From NCBI GenBank assembly GCA_944349375.1, contig CALVMV010000003.1:26755-90754 (forward strand): a stretch of DNA of 64,000 nucleotides. Direction: 5' to 3'. Made by a program: the position numbers and the translations under genes. The stretch comes from an uncultured Clostridia bacterium. GTDB taxonomy: Bacteria > Bacillota > Clostridia > Christensenellales > UBA1242. Shown here piece after piece: positions 29,097-51,896 of this stretch (position 1 is the stretch's first letter; each line of letters opens with the position of its first letter). The notes under the pieces were generated by a model. It saw nothing but the letters and a program-made list of their open reading frames with translations, was not told where the DNA came from and did not search any database.

Positions 29097-30143
29097 TTAT
29101 TGATCTGTATTTCTTAATTGTAAAACATTTGCAACACTTTTTCTCATGTCTTCATTAATAGCAGCATAATGCTTCTTTGTAGTATTTACATCTTTATGTC
29201 CTAGAACATCTGCTACAATATAAATATCTTTAGTTTCTCGATAAAGGTTAGTCCCAAATGTACTTCTAAGCTTATGAGGGGAAATCTTTTTCAAAGGAGA
29301 GGCAATTTTAGCAAATTTTTTTACTAAATTTTCAACTGCTCTTATTGAAATTCGTTTATTTTGCAAAGATATAAACATGGCTTTTTCTTCTTGTGATATT
29401 GGAAGGGTGGCTCGTTTTTCTAACCATGTTTTTAACGCCATAGCTACTTCATCTGAAAAATACAACATTGATTTGTTACCACCTTTTCTAGTAACTACGA
29501 AAGCATTTTCTTTAAAGTCGAAATTATCTATGTCTAATCCCACAAGTTCAGAGATTCTTATGCCTGTTCCTAAAAATAAAGTTACTATAGCATTATCCCT
29601 TTCAAAAGTATTTTTGTTATAAGATTTTTGCTTTTGTGTAAAATCTAGTGGATTTTCAATAGCATTAAGCATTTTTGAAACTTCATCTTTCTCTAGTCTA
29701 ATTATTTCTTTATTATGTAATTTTGGTGTTTCAATTTTGCTTACTACATTAGAAGATATGAGGTCATGATTAAATAAATACTTGAAAAAACTTCTTAAAG
29801 AAGCTAGTTTTCTAGCTTTTCCGCGTTCTTTATTTTGGCTAACTTTATTATTTTCACCACTATAATAAGATAAGTAAGATAAGAATTGTTCTATATCACG
29901 AGATTTAAGTTTATTTAAATCCTCAAAAGAGATCTCTTTCTTTTTTTTATGAAAAATATTTTCCGATATATATTCAAAAAATACATTTAAATCCATCGCA
30001 TAATTATATCTAGTTAGCGAAGATGTGTTATTTTCAATACCTATAAAAAAATCTAAGCAATAATAGGGGAGAGATTCCAAGTATTTGCTCATTTTCATTC
30101 TATTTTTTAAATCTCTTTTTTCATAAAATGATAATTTATCCAT
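29097..30143 (-). CDS. XerS-like tyrosine recombinase (348 aa)
   Basis: Full catalytic set: GTGIRISE (R), TRKGG (K), PHKLR (HxxR), LGHKD (H), TKKHY (Y); N-terminus LPYYCLDFF..T..NY..D..FF resembles XerS-type; no flanking mobile-element genes. Confidence 0.85.
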   Translation of the reverse strand: MDKLSFYEKRDLKNRMKMSKYLESLPYYCLDFFIGIENNTSSLTRYNYAMDLNVFFEYISENIFHKKKKEISFEDLNKLKSRDIEQFLSYLSYYSGENNKVSQNKERGKARKLASLRSFFKYLFNHDLISSNVVSKIETPKLHNKEIIRLEKDEVSKMLNAIENPLDFTQKQKSYNKNTFERDNAIVTLFLGTGIRISELVGLDIDNFDFKENAFVVTRKGGNKSMLYFSDEVAMALKTWLEKRATLPISQEEKAMFISLQNKRISIRAVENLVKKFAKIASPLKKISPHKLRSTFGTNLYRETKDIYIVADVLGHKDVNTTKKHYAAINEDMRKSVANVLQLRNTDQ

Positions 30144-30190
30144 AGTTAAAGGATAGCACATTTGTTTGAAAAAACAAAACAAAAACAGAT

Positions 30191-30204
30191 ATCTATGCGT
30201 AAAA
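30191..30204. promoter_or_regulatory. Half-site identical to the arm of the 32746-32783 palindrome
   Basis: ATCTATGCGTAAAA, exact 14-nt match, just upstream of the recombinase -35 region. Confidence 0.65.
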
Positions 30205-30378
30205 TATTTAATTTTTCAGTTTTGGTTTAACATAATACTTACAATATATTGTATCTACTATATTTTTATAATAGAAAAAGAATTTATTTAAATTTTTAAA
30301 TATATTTTTAAATTATCACTTAATTAATTTGACTATTTTAGTAAAAAAAGGTAAGATATTTGTTAAGTGAGGAAGGTT

Positions 30379-31668
30379 ATGATAGATATAAATTTAATTA
30401 GAACAAATCCTGAATTAGTAAAAGAAAATATCAAGAAAAAATTCCAGGATCAAAAACTTCAATATGTTGATGAAGTTTTAAAATTAGATGGTGAAATTAG
30501 GTCATTAAAAAGAGAAGGAGATTCTTTGCGTAGTCAAAGAAATGCGAAAAGTTCTCAAATTGGTCAATGTATGAAAGAAAAAAACATTGAACAAGCAAAC
30601 TTTATTAAAAATGAAGTTGTAAAAATTAATGAAAGATTAATTCAAATTGAAAAAGATGAACTTTCTCTTTCAGAAAAATTGAAAACATATATGATGTCAA
30701 TTCCAAATATAATTGATGATGATGTTCCAATCGGAAAAGATGATAGTGAAAATGTTCAAAGATTAACTGTAGGAGAGGCTAAAAAGGTTGATTTTGAAAT
30801 TCCTTATCATGCCCAAATTATGGAAAGTTTAAATGGTTTAGATATTGATAGCGCAAGAAGAACAAGCGGGACAGGATTTTATTACTTAACAGGAGATATC
30901 GCTAGATTGCATTCTGCAATTCTTTCTTATGCCAGAGATTTTATGATTAATAAAGGCTTTACTTATTGTGTTCCTCCATTTATGATTAGAAGCGATGTGG
31001 TTAATGGTGTTATGAGCTTTGAAGAAATGGAAAATATGATGTATAAAATTGAAGGCGAAGACTTATATTTGATTGGAACTAGCGAACATTCTATGATTGG
31101 AAGATTTAAAGATACAATATTAAAAGAAGAAGAGTTGCCTTTAATGTTAACTTCGTATTCTCCATGTTTTAGAAAAGAAATTGGAGCTCATGGGATTGAA
31201 GAAAGAGGTGTATATCGAGTTCATCAATTTGAAAAACAAGAAATGATTGTAATTTGCAAACCTGAAGATTCAAAAGAATGGTATAATAAAATGTGGCAAA
31301 TTTCATCAGAATTTTTTAAGACTTTGGATATCCCACATGAAGTTATGGAATGTTGCAGTGGAGATTTAGCAGATTTGAAGGTAAAATCTTGTGATTTAAA
31401 TGCATGGAGTCCAAGACAAAACAAGTATTTTGGAGAAGTTGGTTCTTGTTCTAATCTATCTGATGCCCAAGCTAGAAGATTGGGAATTCGTTACAAATCA
31501 AGCGAAGGAATAAAATTTGCTCATACTTTAAACAATACTGTTGTTGCGCCTCCTAGAATGCTTATTGCATTTTTGGAAAATAACATAAACAAAGATGGAA
31601 GCATTAATATCCCTGTTGCTTTAAGAAATTATATGGGTGGAAAAGATAAAATTTATCCAAAAAAATAA
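30379..31668 (+). CDS. serS: Serine-tRNA ligase
   Basis: MIDINLIR, IPN, LIGTSEH, CFRKE, RVHQFEKQE, SCSN, HTLNNT; promoter TTGACT-17-TAAGAT. Confidence 0.97.
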   Translation: MIDINLIRTNPELVKENIKKKFQDQKLQYVDEVLKLDGEIRSLKREGDSLRSQRNAKSSQIGQCMKEKNIEQANFIKNEVVKINERLIQIEKDELSLSEKLKTYMMSIPNIIDDDVPIGKDDSENVQRLTVGEAKKVDFEIPYHAQIMESLNGLDIDSARRTSGTGFYYLTGDIARLHSAILSYARDFMINKGFTYCVPPFMIRSDVVNGVMSFEEMENMMYKIEGEDLYLIGTSEHSMIGRFKDTILKEEELPLMLTSYSPCFRKEIGAHGIEERGVYRVHQFEKQEMIVICKPEDSKEWYNKMWQISSEFFKTLDIPHEVMECCSGDLADLKVKSCDLNAWSPRQNKYFGEVGSCSNLSDAQARRLGIRYKSSEGIKFAHTLNNTVVAPPRMLIAFLENNINKDGSINIPVALRNYMGGKDKIYPKK

Positions 31669-31689
31669 GGATTTAGAAGGTGTAATTTC

Positions 31690-32637
31690 ATGTCAAATTT
31701 GGTTATAGATAAAAGTTTAATAGAAAGCATTGTAAAAAATGATAATCAGTCTTATTATAAAAAAGTTAATGATAGAGTTTCTTCAATATTAACAAATTCT
31801 ATTAAGCGTTTGTCTAAGCAAATACCATACATTAGCACTGAAAATGTAGTTTTGCAACCATATAATGAAATATTATCAGGAGCTATAACTGATAATAGCA
31901 TTTTTTCTTATTTATTAGGTGTCGAAAGTGCTCAATTAGAATTAAATACTAGAAAAGTAAACACTTTTTGGCGCAATTTGAAAAAAAGATTAAAATTTGC
32001 ATGGGCAAATAGAAGAAAAAGAAAATCAAAAAAGAATAAAGATGTTAAACAAGATAAAATTGATTTTAATTCAGGGAAATATAATATATATAGCTTAACT
32101 GATGATTTGTTCGAAGCAATAGTACTTAATTTGTGCGAAACTTCGCTAATCTCAAAAGAGGACAATTGTTTGTATATTGTTGGGAAAGATGATTTTGGGG
32201 TAAATGCAAAAATTAAAATAGAAGTTTGTCTTTATTCAAATGAAAATTTTAAATTTTTTATTAATAAGAAAAAAGGATTTAAAGAATATAATTTGAATTG
32301 CAGACTTAACTGTTTAAATGAAAAGATATTGGAAGCAGGTCCTAACTTTGTCAATATGCTTAAAATATTTAATGTTTTGTATTTTTATGTAAATCAAGAA
32401 CATCCAAATGCTATGTTTTTAGAAAGTATATTGTATAATGTGCCAGACAAATTATATGAAGACAAAAGTGTTTACGATACTTTTTTGAAAGTAGTAAATT
32501 ATTTGACATTAAAGTCTATAAATAATTTTAAATCAATAAATGATATAAGTTTAAAATTATATCAAGATAAAATGTTTAATAACCAAGATCAAGTATCTTA
32601 TTTAAAAATGATGAGAATAATTGCAGAAAAAAAATAA
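31690..32637 (+). CDS. Nucleotidyltransferase-fold protein resembling CD-NTase/SMODS, catalytic motifs apparently degenerate
   Basis: C-terminal K...GPNFVNMLKIF...PNAMFLESILYNVPD.LY...YDTF..V.NYL resembles the CdnE-like C-lobe; no GS or DxD motif at the expected place. ORF solid, family tentative. Confidence 0.5.
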   Translation: MSNLVIDKSLIESIVKNDNQSYYKKVNDRVSSILTNSIKRLSKQIPYISTENVVLQPYNEILSGAITDNSIFSYLLGVESAQLELNTRKVNTFWRNLKKRLKFAWANRRKRKSKKNKDVKQDKIDFNSGKYNIYSLTDDLFEAIVLNLCETSLISKEDNCLYIVGKDDFGVNAKIKIEVCLYSNENFKFFINKKKGFKEYNLNCRLNCLNEKILEAGPNFVNMLKIFNVLYFYVNQEHPNAMFLESILYNVPDKLYEDKSVYDTFLKVVNYLTLKSINNFKSINDISLKLYQDKMFNNQDQVSYLKMMRIIAEKK

Positions 32638-32745
32638 TCTGCAATTTTTTTATAAACTTAATTTTTAAATATAATATAAAAATTTAATAATTTGAATATT
32701 TATAAAAAAATAACAAAATAGCTTTAAAAATGCGCTATCATGCAT

Positions 32746-32783
32746 TAATCTATGCGTAAAAGTTGTGTTTTACGCATAGATTA
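32746..32783. repeat. Perfect inverted repeat, candidate dif (chromosome dimer resolution) site
   Basis: TAATCTATGCGTAAAA-GTTGTG-TTTTACGCATAGATTA (16-6-16), intergenic, at the gene-orientation switch. Confidence 0.7.
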
Positions 32784-32960
32784 TGCAAGTTTATATTTTT
32801 AAAAATTTACCCCTATTCTATTATTTTTAACATCTAATTTCATATCATACTGCCAAAAATTTTTTATAATTAAGTAATTGCCCTTCAAACATTATCAAAA
32901 ATTATTAACTTTTTAAAATAAAAAAAGAAGATAAATTAAAAGAGTTTATAATCCCCCTTT

Positions 32961-33551
32961 TTAAATATCTTTTTTTAACAAAAATGCAAAATTTGAGAGC
33001 TGACATTTTGTATCCTTGTAATTTGGGCAAAATTTTTCTACAAGATTCCAAAATTTAGGAGAATGATTCATTTGCTTGCTATGACATAATTCATGTATGA
33101 TTATGTATTGTATAATATCTTTTGGTAAAATTATACATTTAAAATTAAGCATTATTACTTTTTTTGATGAATAACTCCCCCACAGTCTTTTTGAGCTTTT
33201 TATCACTATTTTATTATAATGATACCCTATTTGTTCTTTTGTCAATTCAATCAATTTTGGCAATTCATTTAATGCCAAAGTTTTATAATCAATGATCTTA
33301 TCCTTTTTATATTGTTTTCCATAGATATAATAATAATTTTCAAAATCGAATGATTTTTCAAAATCACTTCTTTGTTTTTGTAAAGATAATTGCTTTTGAA
33401 TCCATCTTTGTTTTGTTTTTACAAAATCTAAAATCATTGTTTTGCTGACATTAAAAGGAGCCTTTACTTGTATTTGTCTATTTGGCAATATACTAAGTGA
33501 TATACTTTTTCTTTTACTTCTTTTTATTAAAATATTTGCATTATTGTTCAT
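32961..33551 (-). CDS. M48/YgjP-like (SprT-like, DUF45) zinc metallohydrolase
   Basis: RSKRKSISL, WGSYS, YIIIHELCH (HExxH), NHSPKFW. Confidence 0.9.
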   Translation of the reverse strand: MNNNANILIKRSKRKSISLSILPNRQIQVKAPFNVSKTMILDFVKTKQRWIQKQLSLQKQRSDFEKSFDFENYYYIYGKQYKKDKIIDYKTLALNELPKLIELTKEQIGYHYNKIVIKSSKRLWGSYSSKKVIMLNFKCIILPKDIIQYIIIHELCHSKQMNHSPKFWNLVEKFCPNYKDTKCQLSNFAFLLKKDI

Positions 33552-33703
33552 GCCCTAATTATAACAAATAATTTAACAAAATTGAAATATTTTTGCATAC
33601 TACCACAAAATGTAGTTAATTTTTTTTATTATTTTGCATAATAGTACATATTTTGTTTGACTTATAAATTTTGATTTTTTATAATCTTAATATAGAGGTG
33701 TTT

Positions 33704-35356
33704 ATGGAAATTTTTGCAAAGGGTCAACTTTCTTATATGATGTTAAATTGTCTTTTAGAAAGAGATTTTTATGGTCTAGACTTTATTAGTGAAATTAGTA
33801 ATAAAAGTAACGGAAGAATTAATCTAAAAAAACCTAGTGTATATTCAAATTTAACTAGAATGGAAAAGCAAGGTTATGTTTCTTCATATTCAAAAGCCAG
33901 TGACTTTGGACCTAATAGAAGATATTATTCTATAACAGAAAAAGGAAGAAATTATTATCAACAATTAAAAAATGATTTTTCAGAGAATAACATAGATGTT
34001 TTTAGAGATTTTAAAATTGAAAATGAACAAACGGATATTTTAGCCAATATTACTGATAATTCTGAATCAGAAGATGATAAAGATTTTTTTGATTTTTCTT
34101 CATTAAATAATGCTGAAAAAGAAACAAGAGAACCTATCGAGAGTATCAATATTACCAATTCAAACCAATATATAAAGAATGAAAACCAAGAACAAAAAAA
34201 TAATGTTGAAAATTTGCAACAAAAAGTTATGAATAATGAAACAACTTTAAATACCATACAAGAAAATAATTCTGTGCAAGAAAAAGATGATGGGGCTTTT
34301 TTAAATAGAGAACAAGTAGATAATTATAATCAAAGATTATATGATATCTCTAAAGATATAAGAAAATACAAAAAACAACGAAGCTTTGCTGAAGATCAAA
34401 TCGCGATGACCGTAGAAACTCCCCTACAGGAATCTGAAGAAAAAAATCGTGCTAATTTGGAGGCTTTTAAAGCTTCGTTGCTTGAGAACAAAGAAAAATT
34501 TGTAGATAATAAAGATGATTTTTATCGTTTTAATGAAAGGCAAAATAGAAATAGTTACTCAGAGAGCAAAGAGAGTAAGCAGATAAAAGGTAATACATAT
34601 TTTCAAAATAAGCCAATTAATGAAGTTGTTGAAGATGATGGAAAATTTATAACGAATCGTTTAGAAAATGAAGAATTGATCAAACAAAAAAAGATTCAAC
34701 CACCTCGTTTAAAAATACTACAAAACGATAAATCTGATGCCCTACCTCCTCCTAATAGAGATGTCAAAATCGATCCTTCTCATAAAGAGATCATTTCTCA
34801 GCTATATTCTAGAACTAAAGATGGTCGAGAAGAGGAAGGAAATGGATTAAATGCTTTGTATGATTATCAAGATTTACAAGAATTTTATGATGAACAAAAT
34901 GTATCATTTAAAGAATATAAAAAGACGAATATAGAAGTAAAACACAATACAAACAAATTATTTTTTATTCAAAGTTTAATTGTTTTTTTCTTATTATCAA
35001 TATTTTCATCTATTACATATATTGCATTGTATTATTCTGGACTAATTAATTCAACTTTTAACTTTTTATTTATTTTGCTACCAGCTCTACAATTAATTGT
35101 AATTTCAATAAAATTTTATAATTATAAGTGTCATACAAGTTGGATACCTAAGAAAATGGCTTCGATCTGGGAAATTTTTGGTTATACCCTTTTAATTGTG
35201 GCAGCCATAATAGGTATAAATTTTATATTTGGATTAAATACAAATAATTTTGAATTGTATGCAACTACAACTCTATTACCTGTGATTTTGACAATAATTG
35301 CACTGCCTGTTGCTTATTTTATAAAAAGAGCATTAATTGTAAAATATTGGAAATAA
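33704..35356 (+). CDS. PadR-family winged-helix protein with a long polar linker and about 4 C-terminal TM helices
   Basis: YGLDF..I...KKPSVYSNLTRMEKQGYV...PNRRYYSITEKG; hydrophobic C-terminus; SD GAGGTG before ATG 33704. Confidence 0.8.
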   Translation: MEIFAKGQLSYMMLNCLLERDFYGLDFISEISNKSNGRINLKKPSVYSNLTRMEKQGYVSSYSKASDFGPNRRYYSITEKGRNYYQQLKNDFSENNIDVFRDFKIENEQTDILANITDNSESEDDKDFFDFSSLNNAEKETREPIESINITNSNQYIKNENQEQKNNVENLQQKVMNNETTLNTIQENNSVQEKDDGAFLNREQVDNYNQRLYDISKDIRKYKKQRSFAEDQIAMTVETPLQESEEKNRANLEAFKASLLENKEKFVDNKDDFYRFNERQNRNSYSESKESKQIKGNTYFQNKPINEVVEDDGKFITNRLENEELIKQKKIQPPRLKILQNDKSDALPPPNRDVKIDPSHKEIISQLYSRTKDGREEEGNGLNALYDYQDLQEFYDEQNVSFKEYKKTNIEVKHNTNKLFFIQSLIVFFLLSIFSSITYIALYYSGLINSTFNFLFILLPALQLIVISIKFYNYKCHTSWIPKKMASIWEIFGYTLLIVAAIIGINFIFGLNTNNFELYATTTLLPVILTIIALPVAYFIKRALIVKYWK

Positions 35357-46178: not shown

Positions 46179-47378
46179 TTAAAATAAATTTGCACTACAC
46201 ATAACAAGACCGATTATTATTAAGTAAACAAAAGATAAAGCGATAATAAGAGCTATAAGTAATGTCATATTTTTAGAAAGACAGTTTACAAAATTAGCTA
46301 TTTGTTTATTGCCTAGAGGTTCTACAATTCCCGCTATGAGTTTGAGAGCTAACATAAAAATTATTAAATCTAATAAAGGTGTTAATATGCTAGCAAAAAG
46401 TAAAAATAGACCAGCAATGCCAACAGCGTTTTTGATAAGATTTGAAGAAATTAGTATAATGCCCATTCCATCTGAAAGATAAGAGCCTAAAAGAGGAATA
46501 TAACTTTTAATTGCATACTTAGCTGTGCGTATAGAAATACCATCAACTGCTCCAGCAGATATACCTTGTAAAGAAACAAAAGCTGTAAAAATAGTAAATA
46601 CTAAACCCATCAACCATTTATAAGTGCTATTTAAAAAGCCTGAAAATTTTTCTAATTTGACAGTGCTAGATAAATTTGAAACAATTGAAAAAACTATAGA
46701 AAAAATAAAAATTGGTAGTAAGATATAACTTGAAAAACTGCTAATAATGTTGCTTAAAACTGCCATAGCAGGCTGGTAAATAGTTGCCGATACACTTCCT
46801 CCCATAGCAGTTAAAAGAGTTAGTAATATAGGGAATATTGCATCCATTTGGCTTTTAAGCGACAATATTGTGTTAGTGGTAGAAACAATCATTTTAGTAA
46901 CGATTGATAGAAGCAAAACTATAACAATTCCGTATGAAACAAAATTGATTATGTTTGCCATATTTTTACCATTGGTCGAAGGCCTTATCCCTTGCAACAT
47001 ACTACCTAAAACCGAAACACCAATGATAGCAGAAATTACAGGTAATAAACCTAGTATGCTACTAAAAAAAGCATTAATTACTGCTTGCCATAAGCTTTGC
47101 GAATCATCATATTCTCCATATATTAGGGCTTTTACCTTACTTAAAAAGTTTTGCCCACCAAAAATAGAGAGTTGCCCTTCACTAAATGATTTAATAATTT
47201 CATCTAAAGAAGAAAAATCTAAATTTTCAAGTTGATTGTTTAAGCTTTCATCTAATTCTTCTTCCACTTGTTCTTCTGAAATTTCTTCTTGAGCAACAAC
47301 TTGATATTCTGATTGTAATTTTGTTGCGGTTGGGCAGAATAAGAAAAATAAAATTGCTAAGATTAATAACCTTTTCAT
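46179..47378 (-). CDS. spoIIIAE: Stage III sporulation protein AE
   Basis: Polytopic; PILLTLL...GG.VSA, QG, D.ISIRTAKY....IP..G, IKNAVG. Confidence 0.92.
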   Translation of the reverse strand: MKRLLILAILFFLFCPTATKLQSEYQVVAQEEISEEQVEEELDESLNNQLENLDFSSLDEIIKSFSEGQLSIFGGQNFLSKVKALIYGEYDDSQSLWQAVINAFFSSILGLLPVISAIIGVSVLGSMLQGIRPSTNGKNMANIINFVSYGIVIVLLLSIVTKMIVSTTNTILSLKSQMDAIFPILLTLLTAMGGSVSATIYQPAMAVLSNIISSFSSYILLPIFIFSIVFSIVSNLSSTVKLEKFSGFLNSTYKWLMGLVFTIFTAFVSLQGISAGAVDGISIRTAKYAIKSYIPLLGSYLSDGMGIILISSNLIKNAVGIAGLFLLFASILTPLLDLIIFMLALKLIAGIVEPLGNKQIANFVNCLSKNMTLLIALIIALSFVYLIIIGLVMCSANLF

Positions 47379-49527: not shown

Positions 49528-50337
49528 ATGAAAAAAAATAAAGTGGCAATAGTCAGCAGGCTTTCTGTAGATAGTTTTAACTTTATATTTAACATAGAAA
49601 GTATTTTGGCAACAAAAGAAAATCCTGTAAGATATAGGTTTGAAATTGAAAAAATAGAAAATATATTTAACACTGACCATCTCATTGCGTGTGTGATAGA
49701 CAATAAACTCAAAAAGAAATACAAAATAGCATTTAATGATTTTTTTGTGCAAGAAGGGAACCCATGTATATCAACCTTAATGTATCAAAGAATAATGAAT
49801 TACAGGTGTTTTAATAGAAAAAATAGTGATGCAAGTTATATTTATTGTTATTTAAGATATTTACAAAGTAAATATTTAAAAGCTTATTCTAAATTTTTAA
49901 GTACCTTGGATGAAAAAACAAAGCTTAAAAATGTATCAAAAGATTTTATTTCATCGTTCGAAAATAAATTAAAAATAACTGACACCAAAATTATGTTTAA
50001 TGGTACTTACAAGGATTTCTTAATTTATTTAAAAAGTGAATTATTTAGTGATTTTTTAAGAACAACAGAGATATTTAGATCTTTTAGATTTGCTTTAGAG
50101 CCAAATGAATTAAGAGAAGAATTATCTAAAGTCAAAGACTGTATTTTTATCAATGACATGAATAATGCAAATAAAAAATTTGAAATAAGACTTAATAATT
50201 ATTTGGAAGATGCCAAATCAAAAGAGGAAGTTGGCATGAAAGAAGTAATGAGAAGCCTTGCTGAGGAAAGAAGGCAAAGAAAAAAACGATTAAAAGCCAA
50301 AAAATCACATGATATATCAGAAGAAAAAGACGAATAA
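49528..50337 (+). CDS. Hypothetical protein (ORFan, basic C-terminal tail)
   Basis: ATG at 49528 after SD GGAGAAGG; promoter TTGACA(49483)-17-TATAAA; terminator about 50337-50370. Confidence 0.75.
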   Translation: MKKNKVAIVSRLSVDSFNFIFNIESILATKENPVRYRFEIEKIENIFNTDHLIACVIDNKLKKKYKIAFNDFFVQEGNPCISTLMYQRIMNYRCFNRKNSDASYIYCYLRYLQSKYLKAYSKFLSTLDEKTKLKNVSKDFISSFENKLKITDTKIMFNGTYKDFLIYLKSELFSDFLRTTEIFRSFRFALEPNELREELSKVKDCIFINDMNNANKKFEIRLNNYLEDAKSKEEVGMKEVMRSLAEERRQRKKRLKAKKSHDISEEKDE

Positions 50338-51029: not shown

Positions 51030-51896
51030 TTATGTATTGTTTTCTTTCAAATTAAAGTATATTTTTTTCATTTCAAGAGCATCATGAGGCATTTTACTCA
51101 TTGATTCACATATTATTCTAGGTTCAAGATTGTAGTCAATCAAAACTCTTGCTAATGGTTCAAAATTTGGACCATAGATATTGTCATCAAAATCTAGATG
51201 TTTTATTTCACCCTTTTGTCCATATTGAATTTTAGAAAAATGGATGTGGCAATTTTTAATTCTATCAAAGCCTAATTTTTCTATAGCATAGTCAAAGATT
51301 TTTTTATAATCTTCTGTATCTCTTAATTGCCCTTGCATAAGTGAGTTTATGTGTCCAAAATCGAATGTAGGCATTAAATGATTGTTAAGAGCGCATAGGT
51401 CCACAATTTCTTTGTAAGAGCCGATTTGCATGGTTTTTCCCATAGTTTCAGGACACAACCATAAACCATTAAGATTATTATTTTCTTCCAAATTGTTAAA
51501 AAATTCTTTAAATCTGTCTTGTGTTAACTTTAAAGCTTCTTCTCTTGAAAGTTTGCCACATGATGAAGAATGAAAGATTAACCTGTCCGCACCGAAAGCT
51601 TTTAAGAAACGAATACCTGTTATTATGTAATTTTTAGTTTTTTCATACATTATAGGGTCAGGATTAGCAAAATTTATATAAAAAGGAGCATGAATAGAAA
51701 GAGAAATTCCATTTTCAGTAAATAATTGCCCCGCTTTAGTTGCTGTTTCAATACTCATTTGATATCCATGTCCAAAGGAGTATTCATATGCGTCTAGTCC
51801 ATAATTTTTAATCCATTGAGGGACTTGACTTATGTTGTTATACCCTTGCTCATAAAACTCATTTCCACAACCAGAAGGCCCAAATTTTATAGCCAT
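51030..51896 (-). CDS. Endonuclease IV-like TIM-barrel protein (AP endonuclease family 2)
   Basis: FGPSG, SIHAPFYIN, PETMGK, DFGH, HIHFS.I, ICES metal-binding motifs. Confidence 0.85.
   Translation of the reverse strand: MAIKFGPSGCGNEFYEQGYNNISQVPQWIKNYGLDAYEYSFGHGYQMSIETATKAGQLFTENGISLSIHAPFYINFANPDPIMYEKTKNYIITGIRFLKAFGADRLIFHSSSCGKLSREEALKLTQDRFKEFFNNLEENNNLNGLWLCPETMGKTMQIGSYKEIVDLCALNNHLMPTFDFGHINSLMQGQLRDTEDYKKIFDYAIEKLGFDRIKNCHIHFSKIQYGQKGEIKHLDFDDNIYGPNFEPLARVLIDYNLEPRIICESMSKMPHDALEMKKIYFNLKENNT

Follow-up and report, generated by a model that had tools for sequence, protein, structure and literature searches.

A dif half-site kept at the promoter of an XerS-like recombinase gene in Clostridia, a candidate operator for Xer autoregulation

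Tn3 resolvase represses its own promoter via its recombination site, res. Among Xer recombinases, the XerS and XerH systems keep dif beside the gene of their recombinase, an arrangement that has awaited an explanation since the first description of the module. The first-pass annotation of the locus studied here stated that difSL sits immediately upstream of xerS in streptococci, which agrees with the available portion of Le Bourgeois et al. (2007; PMC1914069), which places difSL in or beside the xerS promoter and offers XerS autoregulation as a speculation. According to the accessible part of a later study (Nolivos et al., 2010; PMC2965235), an XerS monomer binds one half-site alone in vitro; half-sites are bound individually also in the XerH/difH system of Helicobacter and Campylobacter (5JJV/5JK0), as described in the available part of PMC5357621, a source that covers IMEX, the elements integrating at dif, as well. 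The term 'autoregul' is absent from the available parts of PMC2965235 and PMC5357621, and no report of Xer autoregulation through a dif half-site was found in the literature searched, namely, in titles and the beginnings of abstracts among the matches listed.

The window analysed here, that is, the whole stretch of 64,000 nucleotides from an uncultured Clostridia bacterium, resembles the XerS/difSL system of streptococci and lactococci in that it has a long, probably single Xer recombinase, for which XerS is the best profile, and one terminus site linked to the recombinase gene. It differs in that dif is 2.6 kb from xer, with serS and an open reading frame termed orf315 between them, and in that one arm only stands at the xer promoter. 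If the working dif did move while one arm stayed conserved at the promoter, the locus would provide a natural separation of DNA binding from recombination, in which a 14-bp arm and a compact, apparently leaderless promoter make a small and clean test object.

The dif site, its recombinase and the genes between them

The palindrome at 32748-32781 is made of a 14-nt arm, a 6-nt centre (GTTGTG) and a 14-nt inverted arm, that is, ATCTATGCGTAAAA-GTTGTG-TTTTACGCATAGAT, with the arms at 32748-32761 on the plus strand and 32768-32781 on the minus strand. Cumulative GC skew climbs from the start of the window, reaches its maximum at 32-34 kb and then declines, which places the palindrome at the replication terminus. 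Of 61 genomes of the genus searched for the core CGYAAAA-N6-TTTTRCG, 53 have exactly one dif palindrome, the eight without one including assemblies of 58-98% completeness, and one dif each was found in the five genomes checked from other genera of the family. The 78 arms of 39 loci follow the consensus ATC-T[A/C]T[G/T/A]CG[T/C]AAAA, conserved over 14 positions; the letters of the outer ATC are present in 71, 75 and 73 of the 78 arms, and true dif arms vary at arm positions 2, 4 and 7 only. Its location at the terminus, its occurrence once per chromosome across species and its inverted arms around a centre of 6-8 bp identify the palindrome as the predicted single-copy dif of this chromosome.

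The neighbouring gene, xer (29097-30143, minus strand), encodes a predicted tyrosine recombinase of 348 aa from a conserved ATG. First, the best NCBIfam match of its product is XerS (NF003462; 188.5 bits, aa 14-339 of 348), followed by XerC (170 bits) and XerD (158 bits); the XerS score lies below the equivalog cut-off of 267 bits. Second, Pfam finds PF00589 (117 bits) and PF02899. Third, among proteins of solved structure, its match to H. pylori XerH (44.8 bits) is weaker than that to the C-terminal part of E. coli XerD (69.6 bits). Judged by these profiles, the product is an XerS-like recombinase. Orthologues are present in 38 of 41 related genomes, and the relatives align from residues 1-6. 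The 79.6%-complete genome has six matches to PF00589, of which the five besides xer lie in open frames of 206-432 aa; xer is probably the sole Xer of the genome. The first-pass annotation had tied the palindrome to this particular recombinase, a link that gains from the results: the palindrome appears to be the single-copy dif at the skew terminus, the neighbouring gene is XerS-like, and the lone copy near its promoter matches a full dif arm.

Two genes, both on the plus strand, lie between xer and dif. The first, serS (30367-31668), encodes seryl-tRNA synthetase (TIGR00414; 405.9 bits, above cut-off) and is the only copy above cut-off in the genome; its predicted promoter is at 30329-30357, 125 nt beyond the lone arm. 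The second, the uncharacterised orf315 (31690-32637), belongs to no Pfam or NCBIfam family. It adjoins dif in the genus and in several other genera, and its position is kept, at approximately 40% identity, in serS-adjacent relatives. Its nearest language-model clusters carry CD_NTase_C (PF26305) or SMODS nucleotidyltransferase domains, with scores of 0.92-0.98, which we treat as a lead only. Past dif, a YgjP-like metallopeptidase (32961-33551, minus strand) and a protein of 561 aa carrying a PadR domain at its N-terminus (33671-35356, plus strand) both recur near dif in relatives. An Rfam scan of 29900-33100 gave just a chance-level miRNA match (E = 0.15). At least 20 sequencing-run rows from 12 studies, recorded as chicken or gut metagenomes, contain the stretch, with no RNA run among those listed.

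The lone arm and the xer promoter

Since xer is on the minus strand, the lone arm at 30191-30204 is located upstream of it. The plus strand of the arm, ATCTATGCGTAAAA, agrees at 14 of 14 positions with either arm of the palindrome; in the sense of xer the sequence is TTTTACGCATAGAT, its outer end pointing to the xer promoter, and the arm covers positions -61 to -48 when the conserved xer ATG at 30143 is taken as +1. The first-pass annotation had described an exact copy of the arm with neither a further copy in the window nor a partner, and sequence comparison bears this out on each count. The only exact matches in the window are the two palindrome arms and the lone arm, with one further match at 51092 that has two mismatches. 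In the assembly scanned (941,914 bases, 15 contigs, 79.6% complete), the genome-wide count that the annotation had proposed gave three exact copies, against 0.026 expected genome-wide, and 1.4e-4 within 5 kb, under a mononucleotide model; no copy differs by a single base, 20 have two mismatches and 183 have three. The repeat is real, and the 14-mer is no common genomic word. Judged by its sequence, the lone copy comprises all 14 nt of a dif arm.

A partner for the lone arm was found neither in the window nor across 45 lone arms of relatives, in which the 17-nt offset was checked. At this offset, the R-type lone arms (33) match the arm consensus at a mean of 4.39 of 11 positions, and the F-type lone arms (12) at 4.5 of 11, within the range of 4.2-5.6 obtained at other offsets; an IMEX-type degenerate second arm was likewise not detected, the 17-nt offset being no better than the others.

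We place the xer promoter at 30150-30178 (minus strand), with a -35 element TTTGTT (30178-30173), a spacer of 17 nt and a TG-extended -10 element, TGCTATCCT (30158-30150). A consensus promoter scan of the window did not call it, and this promoter, which appears weak in the window, is inferred from the alignment of relatives. In 36 aligned species, T-12, A-11, T-7 and the TT at -35/-34 are invariant (36/36 each). The resulting layout of the window is arm, 12 nt, -35, 17 nt, -10, 6 nt, ATG, so that the earlier estimate of a distance of about 14 nt between arm and -35 was about right. Across relatives, a -10 of the form TGnTAnAAT is found 6-7 nt before the xer ATG, with no Shine-Dalgarno sequence. 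Because six nucleotides separate the -10 from the ATG, the xer mRNA is probably leaderless, and leaderless translation of xer appears to be a feature of the whole family.

Upstream of the lone arm, at 30239-30254, TTACAATATATTGTAT forms an NrdR-box-like palindrome that agrees with all six conserved positions (C4, A6, A8, T9, T11 and G13) of the criteria given in the available part of PMC13584703. Of 84 genus loci, 42 have the core of an NrdR box in the 250 nt upstream of xer (expected, 0.119); the commonest spacing of pairs is 32 nt. NrdR itself is encoded in the genome (G000:C2:165115-165552; 199 bits), and ribonucleotide reductase (PF13597, PF02867) was not found in the 79.6%-complete assembly; NrdR may act here as a regulator of xer or serS. 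The 12-mer ACAATATATTGT, considered as a genome-wide operator, was rejected, as it has only 3-4 copies in the genome and fits the NrdR box instead.

Conservation, other layouts and origin of the arm

On a quick Xer tree with SH-aLRT support, the starred clade that contains the window has 40 rows: four are without the arm, and the other 36 form two starred groups. Alignment of the regions upstream of orthologues, a check that the first-pass annotation had suggested, showed that the arm is kept with at most one mismatch in 29 of these 36 species, at positions -54 to -75; it has a mutated CG core in three (L095, L092 and L039) and is absent from four (L101, L102, L097 and L145). The gap between arm and -35 is 10-14 nt in 29 of the 36. 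The arm is the best-conserved block upstream of xer, with a mean consensus-base fraction of 0.89 against 0.58 in the flanks (36 aligned sequences), and its G/C positions are kept in 27-32 of the 36 sequences, within an otherwise AT-rich region of a genome with 29% GC. Two features expected of an operator are found together: a recognition sequence identical to the dif arm at 14 of 14 positions, and a conserved, fixed position with respect to the promoter.

Over the whole genus, 36 of 86 non-redundant loci have an 11-mer arm of exact consensus in the 130 nt upstream of xer (background, 0.0027 per 120 nt), or 47 of the 86 when one mismatch is allowed (background, 0.026 per 120 nt), although such locus counts overstate the independent support because the genomes are related. 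At the three variable positions, a lone arm matches the dif arms of its own genome with a mean of 2.67, against 1.96 after shuffling, and none of 2000 shuffles reached 2.67; this match is inflated by relatedness and stems largely from two big related groups. There is no strict tracking of the genome's own dif, as in L087, L044 and L096 the lone arm begins with TAT and dif with TCT.

The arm takes other layouts in more distant relatives. Within the sister clade, where xer is parted from serS and dif is 16-18 kb off across a gene block including rny, the 39 loci comprise 12 with a flipped arm, three with the arm in the -35/-10 spacer, one with the layout of the window, one with another layout and 22 with none. 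In three genomes (G001:C3, G003:C1 and G008:C3; L153-L155), the 16-18 kb between xer and dif contain rny and about a dozen co-oriented genes, with no serS nearby, which indicates rearrangement around the terminus. The arm fills the -35/-10 spacer in two other genera (G116 and G079) and in three genus loci (L047, L120 and L081). Among 20 other genera of the family, eight have an exact lone arm, two an arm with one mismatch, nine none, and one, G105, a full dif beside xer; these arms are located no further than about 130 nt from the start of xer, distances that are approximate given that the starts were extrapolated from partial alignments, those of G105, G116 and G079 having been checked by translation. 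In 16 of these 20 genera, dif is 1.1-3.2 kb upstream of xer, often with serS and/or an orf315-like gene between.

Further dif-arm sequences were observed elsewhere. On contigs without dif and xer, two genomes carry inverted pairs of the dif-arm 14-mer about 1.4 kb apart (G006:C9:45721-45734(+) and 47101-47114(-); G007:C2:48542-48555(+) and 49972-49985(-)), which could delimit an invertible or Xer-targeted segment. In G017, the contig with xer ends in a dif arm (G017:C16:18542-18555, contig end 18567), 2.6 kb upstream of xer, and a complete dif is found on another contig (G017:C24:14389-14422); this could reflect a second dif copy, or an element integrated at dif in part of the population.

As to where the arm comes from, a decayed ancestral site had been put forward in the first-pass annotation, and only part of this idea survives. 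An ancestral site is favoured by position. In G105, the only dif of the genome adjoins xer, with the order arm, 13 nt, -35 (TTGATT), 17 nt, -10 (TACAAT), 6 nt, ATG; since this spacing is nearly the same as in the window (13 against 12 nt), the lone arm of the window occupies the place that, in a dif abutting the promoter, belongs to the proximal arm. In other families of the order, a full dif lies directly upstream of xer in eight of 13 loci, and in three more by eye or within 0.7-1.3 kb. A site immediately upstream of the recombinase gene, as in a single module, is found in G105 and other families of the order, and not in the window. Simple decay, however, does not describe the arm, which is conserved well above its flanks. 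We give somewhat better than even credence to the reading that the lone arm descends from a dif next to the promoter, of which it was the arm nearer to xer, and has been retained as an operator for Xer autoregulation.

The tree does not settle by itself when the arm arose. The basal lineages of the genus (L128, L051, L049, L050, L052, L053 and L054) have the order xer-serS-orf315-dif and no lone arm, and because these arm-less lineages branch first on the quick tree, a later gain is no less parsimonious than ancestral retention; the tree allows a single gain followed by losses as well as retention from the ancestor with a larger number of losses. The positional match with G105 and the difficulty of making a 14/14 arm anew favour retention. 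The arm is nonetheless dispensable, as it has been lost or is being lost in seven of the 36 close species, where loss is seen in progress, and is missing from the 22 sister-clade loci and the basal lineages.

The order proximal arm, insert, full dif would result from integration of a circle at dif; serS, however, has no second copy in the genome. Because the flanked segment holds the sole serS above cut-off, IMEX cargo was set aside as the main reading. The segment does not look like a mobile element: besides serS it carries a gene kept in this position across genera, and Pfam and NCBIfam profiles detected no integrase or phage genes between the lone arm and dif.

Candidate autoregulation, its alternatives and known systems

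The mechanism that we propose would start from an old dif which, like difSL in streptococci, abutted the promoter of the recombinase gene. The working dif would now stand 2.6 kb further upstream, past serS and orf315, and the old site would have lost its distal arm and centre, the proximal arm being preserved by selection. With distal arm and centre gone, the remnant would be recombination-dead. One Xer monomer would bind the arm at -61 to -48, just upstream of the -35, and set the level of xer transcription, a single arm being sufficient once recombination has moved elsewhere. That Xer, on dif DNA next to the promoter, controls transcription of xer, with the lone arm as operator, is the reading towards which we lean, if slightly. 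Such half-site autoregulation fits the conservation of the arm, the fixed geometry with the promoter, the recurrence of lone arms, the spacer variants and the full site of G105.

Negative feedback is the likelier direction of the effect, and the arms embedded in the -35/-10 spacer imply repression. In the window, the site is centred near -54 without overlap with the core promoter, so that repression is not self-evident and activation is possible; here, bound Xer could weaken upstream promoter contacts or activate.

A first alternative, which we consider unlikely, accepts that Xer binds the arm and denies it a role in transcription: the arm could loop to the dif-bound dimer 2.6 kb off, serve as a local store of recombinase, or be a dead hybrid site that stabilises the insertion of serS and orf315. 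Conservation and dif-arm identity indeed argue for Xer binding only and not for its effect; moreover, the arm and dif flank serS-orf315 in a manner that resembles two hybrid sites after integration at dif, and lone arms near dif occur in relatives (at 1.9 kb in G003, L154:15449, and at 0.9 kb in G042). However, it is the distance to the xer promoter that stays constant, the distance to dif ranging from 2.5 kb to 16-18 kb, and in several lineages the arm sits within the -35/-10 spacer, the classic position of an operator. For the hybrid site in particular, a single-copy essential gene would be atypical cargo of a mobile element, and a second arm has left no trace.

Two further alternatives appear more doubtful still, and to a similar degree. 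According to one, the arm is a neutral scar, left over from an old dif or hybrid site and functionless today. Its loss or decay in seven of 36 close species would be expected of a scar, as would the fact that it is not seen in many other lineages; besides, scars may be common, as a hand tally over 61 genus genomes counted about 35 lone arms away from xer and dif, against 14 for a reversed-pattern control. On the other hand, among species with 72-88% Xer identity the flanks are close to randomised whereas the 14-mer, G/C positions included, is near-invariant. Where intact lone arms carry substitutions, these affect arm positions 2, 4 and 7, which vary in true dif arms too, and spare the positions that are invariant there; and the enrichment of arms upstream of xer exceeds background more than 100-fold.

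According to the other, a different factor reads the block, as an UP-like or activator site or as the -10-like TAAAAT of a divergent transcript towards serS, the likeness to dif being secondary. The block does sit in the UP-element zone (-61 to -48), its plus strand, GCGTAAAAT, includes a -10-like hexamer, and the NrdR-like boxes speak for other regulators acting in the xer intergenic region. Yet the 14/14 match to the arm takes in the outer ATC as well as the CG core, neither of which a promoter element requires; relatives carry the arm in the opposite orientation and at other distances; and the predicted serS promoter is located 125 nt further. Finally, a chance repeat is practically negligible, for although AT-rich genomes give many short repeats and the window count with at most two mismatches (four) was reached in 3 of 100 shuffles, the three exact copies, against the 0.026 expected genome-wide, and the enrichment of arms upstream of xer already refute this reading, and the same arrangement is present in dozens of species.

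Returning to Xer autoregulation through the lone arm, a broader version of it may be drawn for the family, to which we give a little less than an even chance. In this family of small-genome gut Clostridia, recombination-dead dif arms would repeatedly have been made into operators, with Xer acting as a monomeric transcription factor of its own leaderless gene; once dif had drifted off by kilobases, many genera would have retained the arm, shifted it or turned it round, and it would have changed in step with the true dif arms as the specificity of Xer changed. If true, autoregulation by Xer in these bacteria would be the first evidence for the XerS/difSL autoregulation proposed in 2007, and would explain why single-recombinase dif sites cling to recombinase genes.

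Compared with known systems, the locus has something of each and coincides with none. As in XerH/difH, a recombinase that is probably the only one of its kind goes with a near-palindromic site close to its own gene; the xer product is, however, a weak match to H. pylori XerH, from a different phylum. As with the hybrid or degenerate dif sites of IMEX, a segment next to the terminus has a dif-like remnant at one end and an intact dif at the other, an arrangement that a dead remnant would stabilise; in contrast to those sites, the flanked DNA consists of a single-copy essential gene and one unknown gene, fixed across the genus and much of the family, there is no detectable second arm, and the remnant is conserved at a promoter. 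As in Tn3 resolvase and res, a recombinase would double as regulator of its own gene through recombination-site DNA at the promoter, except that there a serine recombinase acts at a full functional site, whereas here a tyrosine recombinase would act at a dead lone arm, apart from the working site. As in XerS/difSL, relatives in the same family and order have dif directly upstream of xer, a likeness of layout. Nevertheless, the xer product scores below the XerS cut-off, and the site of the window is a symmetrical palindrome whose arms measure 14 nt and whose centre measures 6 nt.
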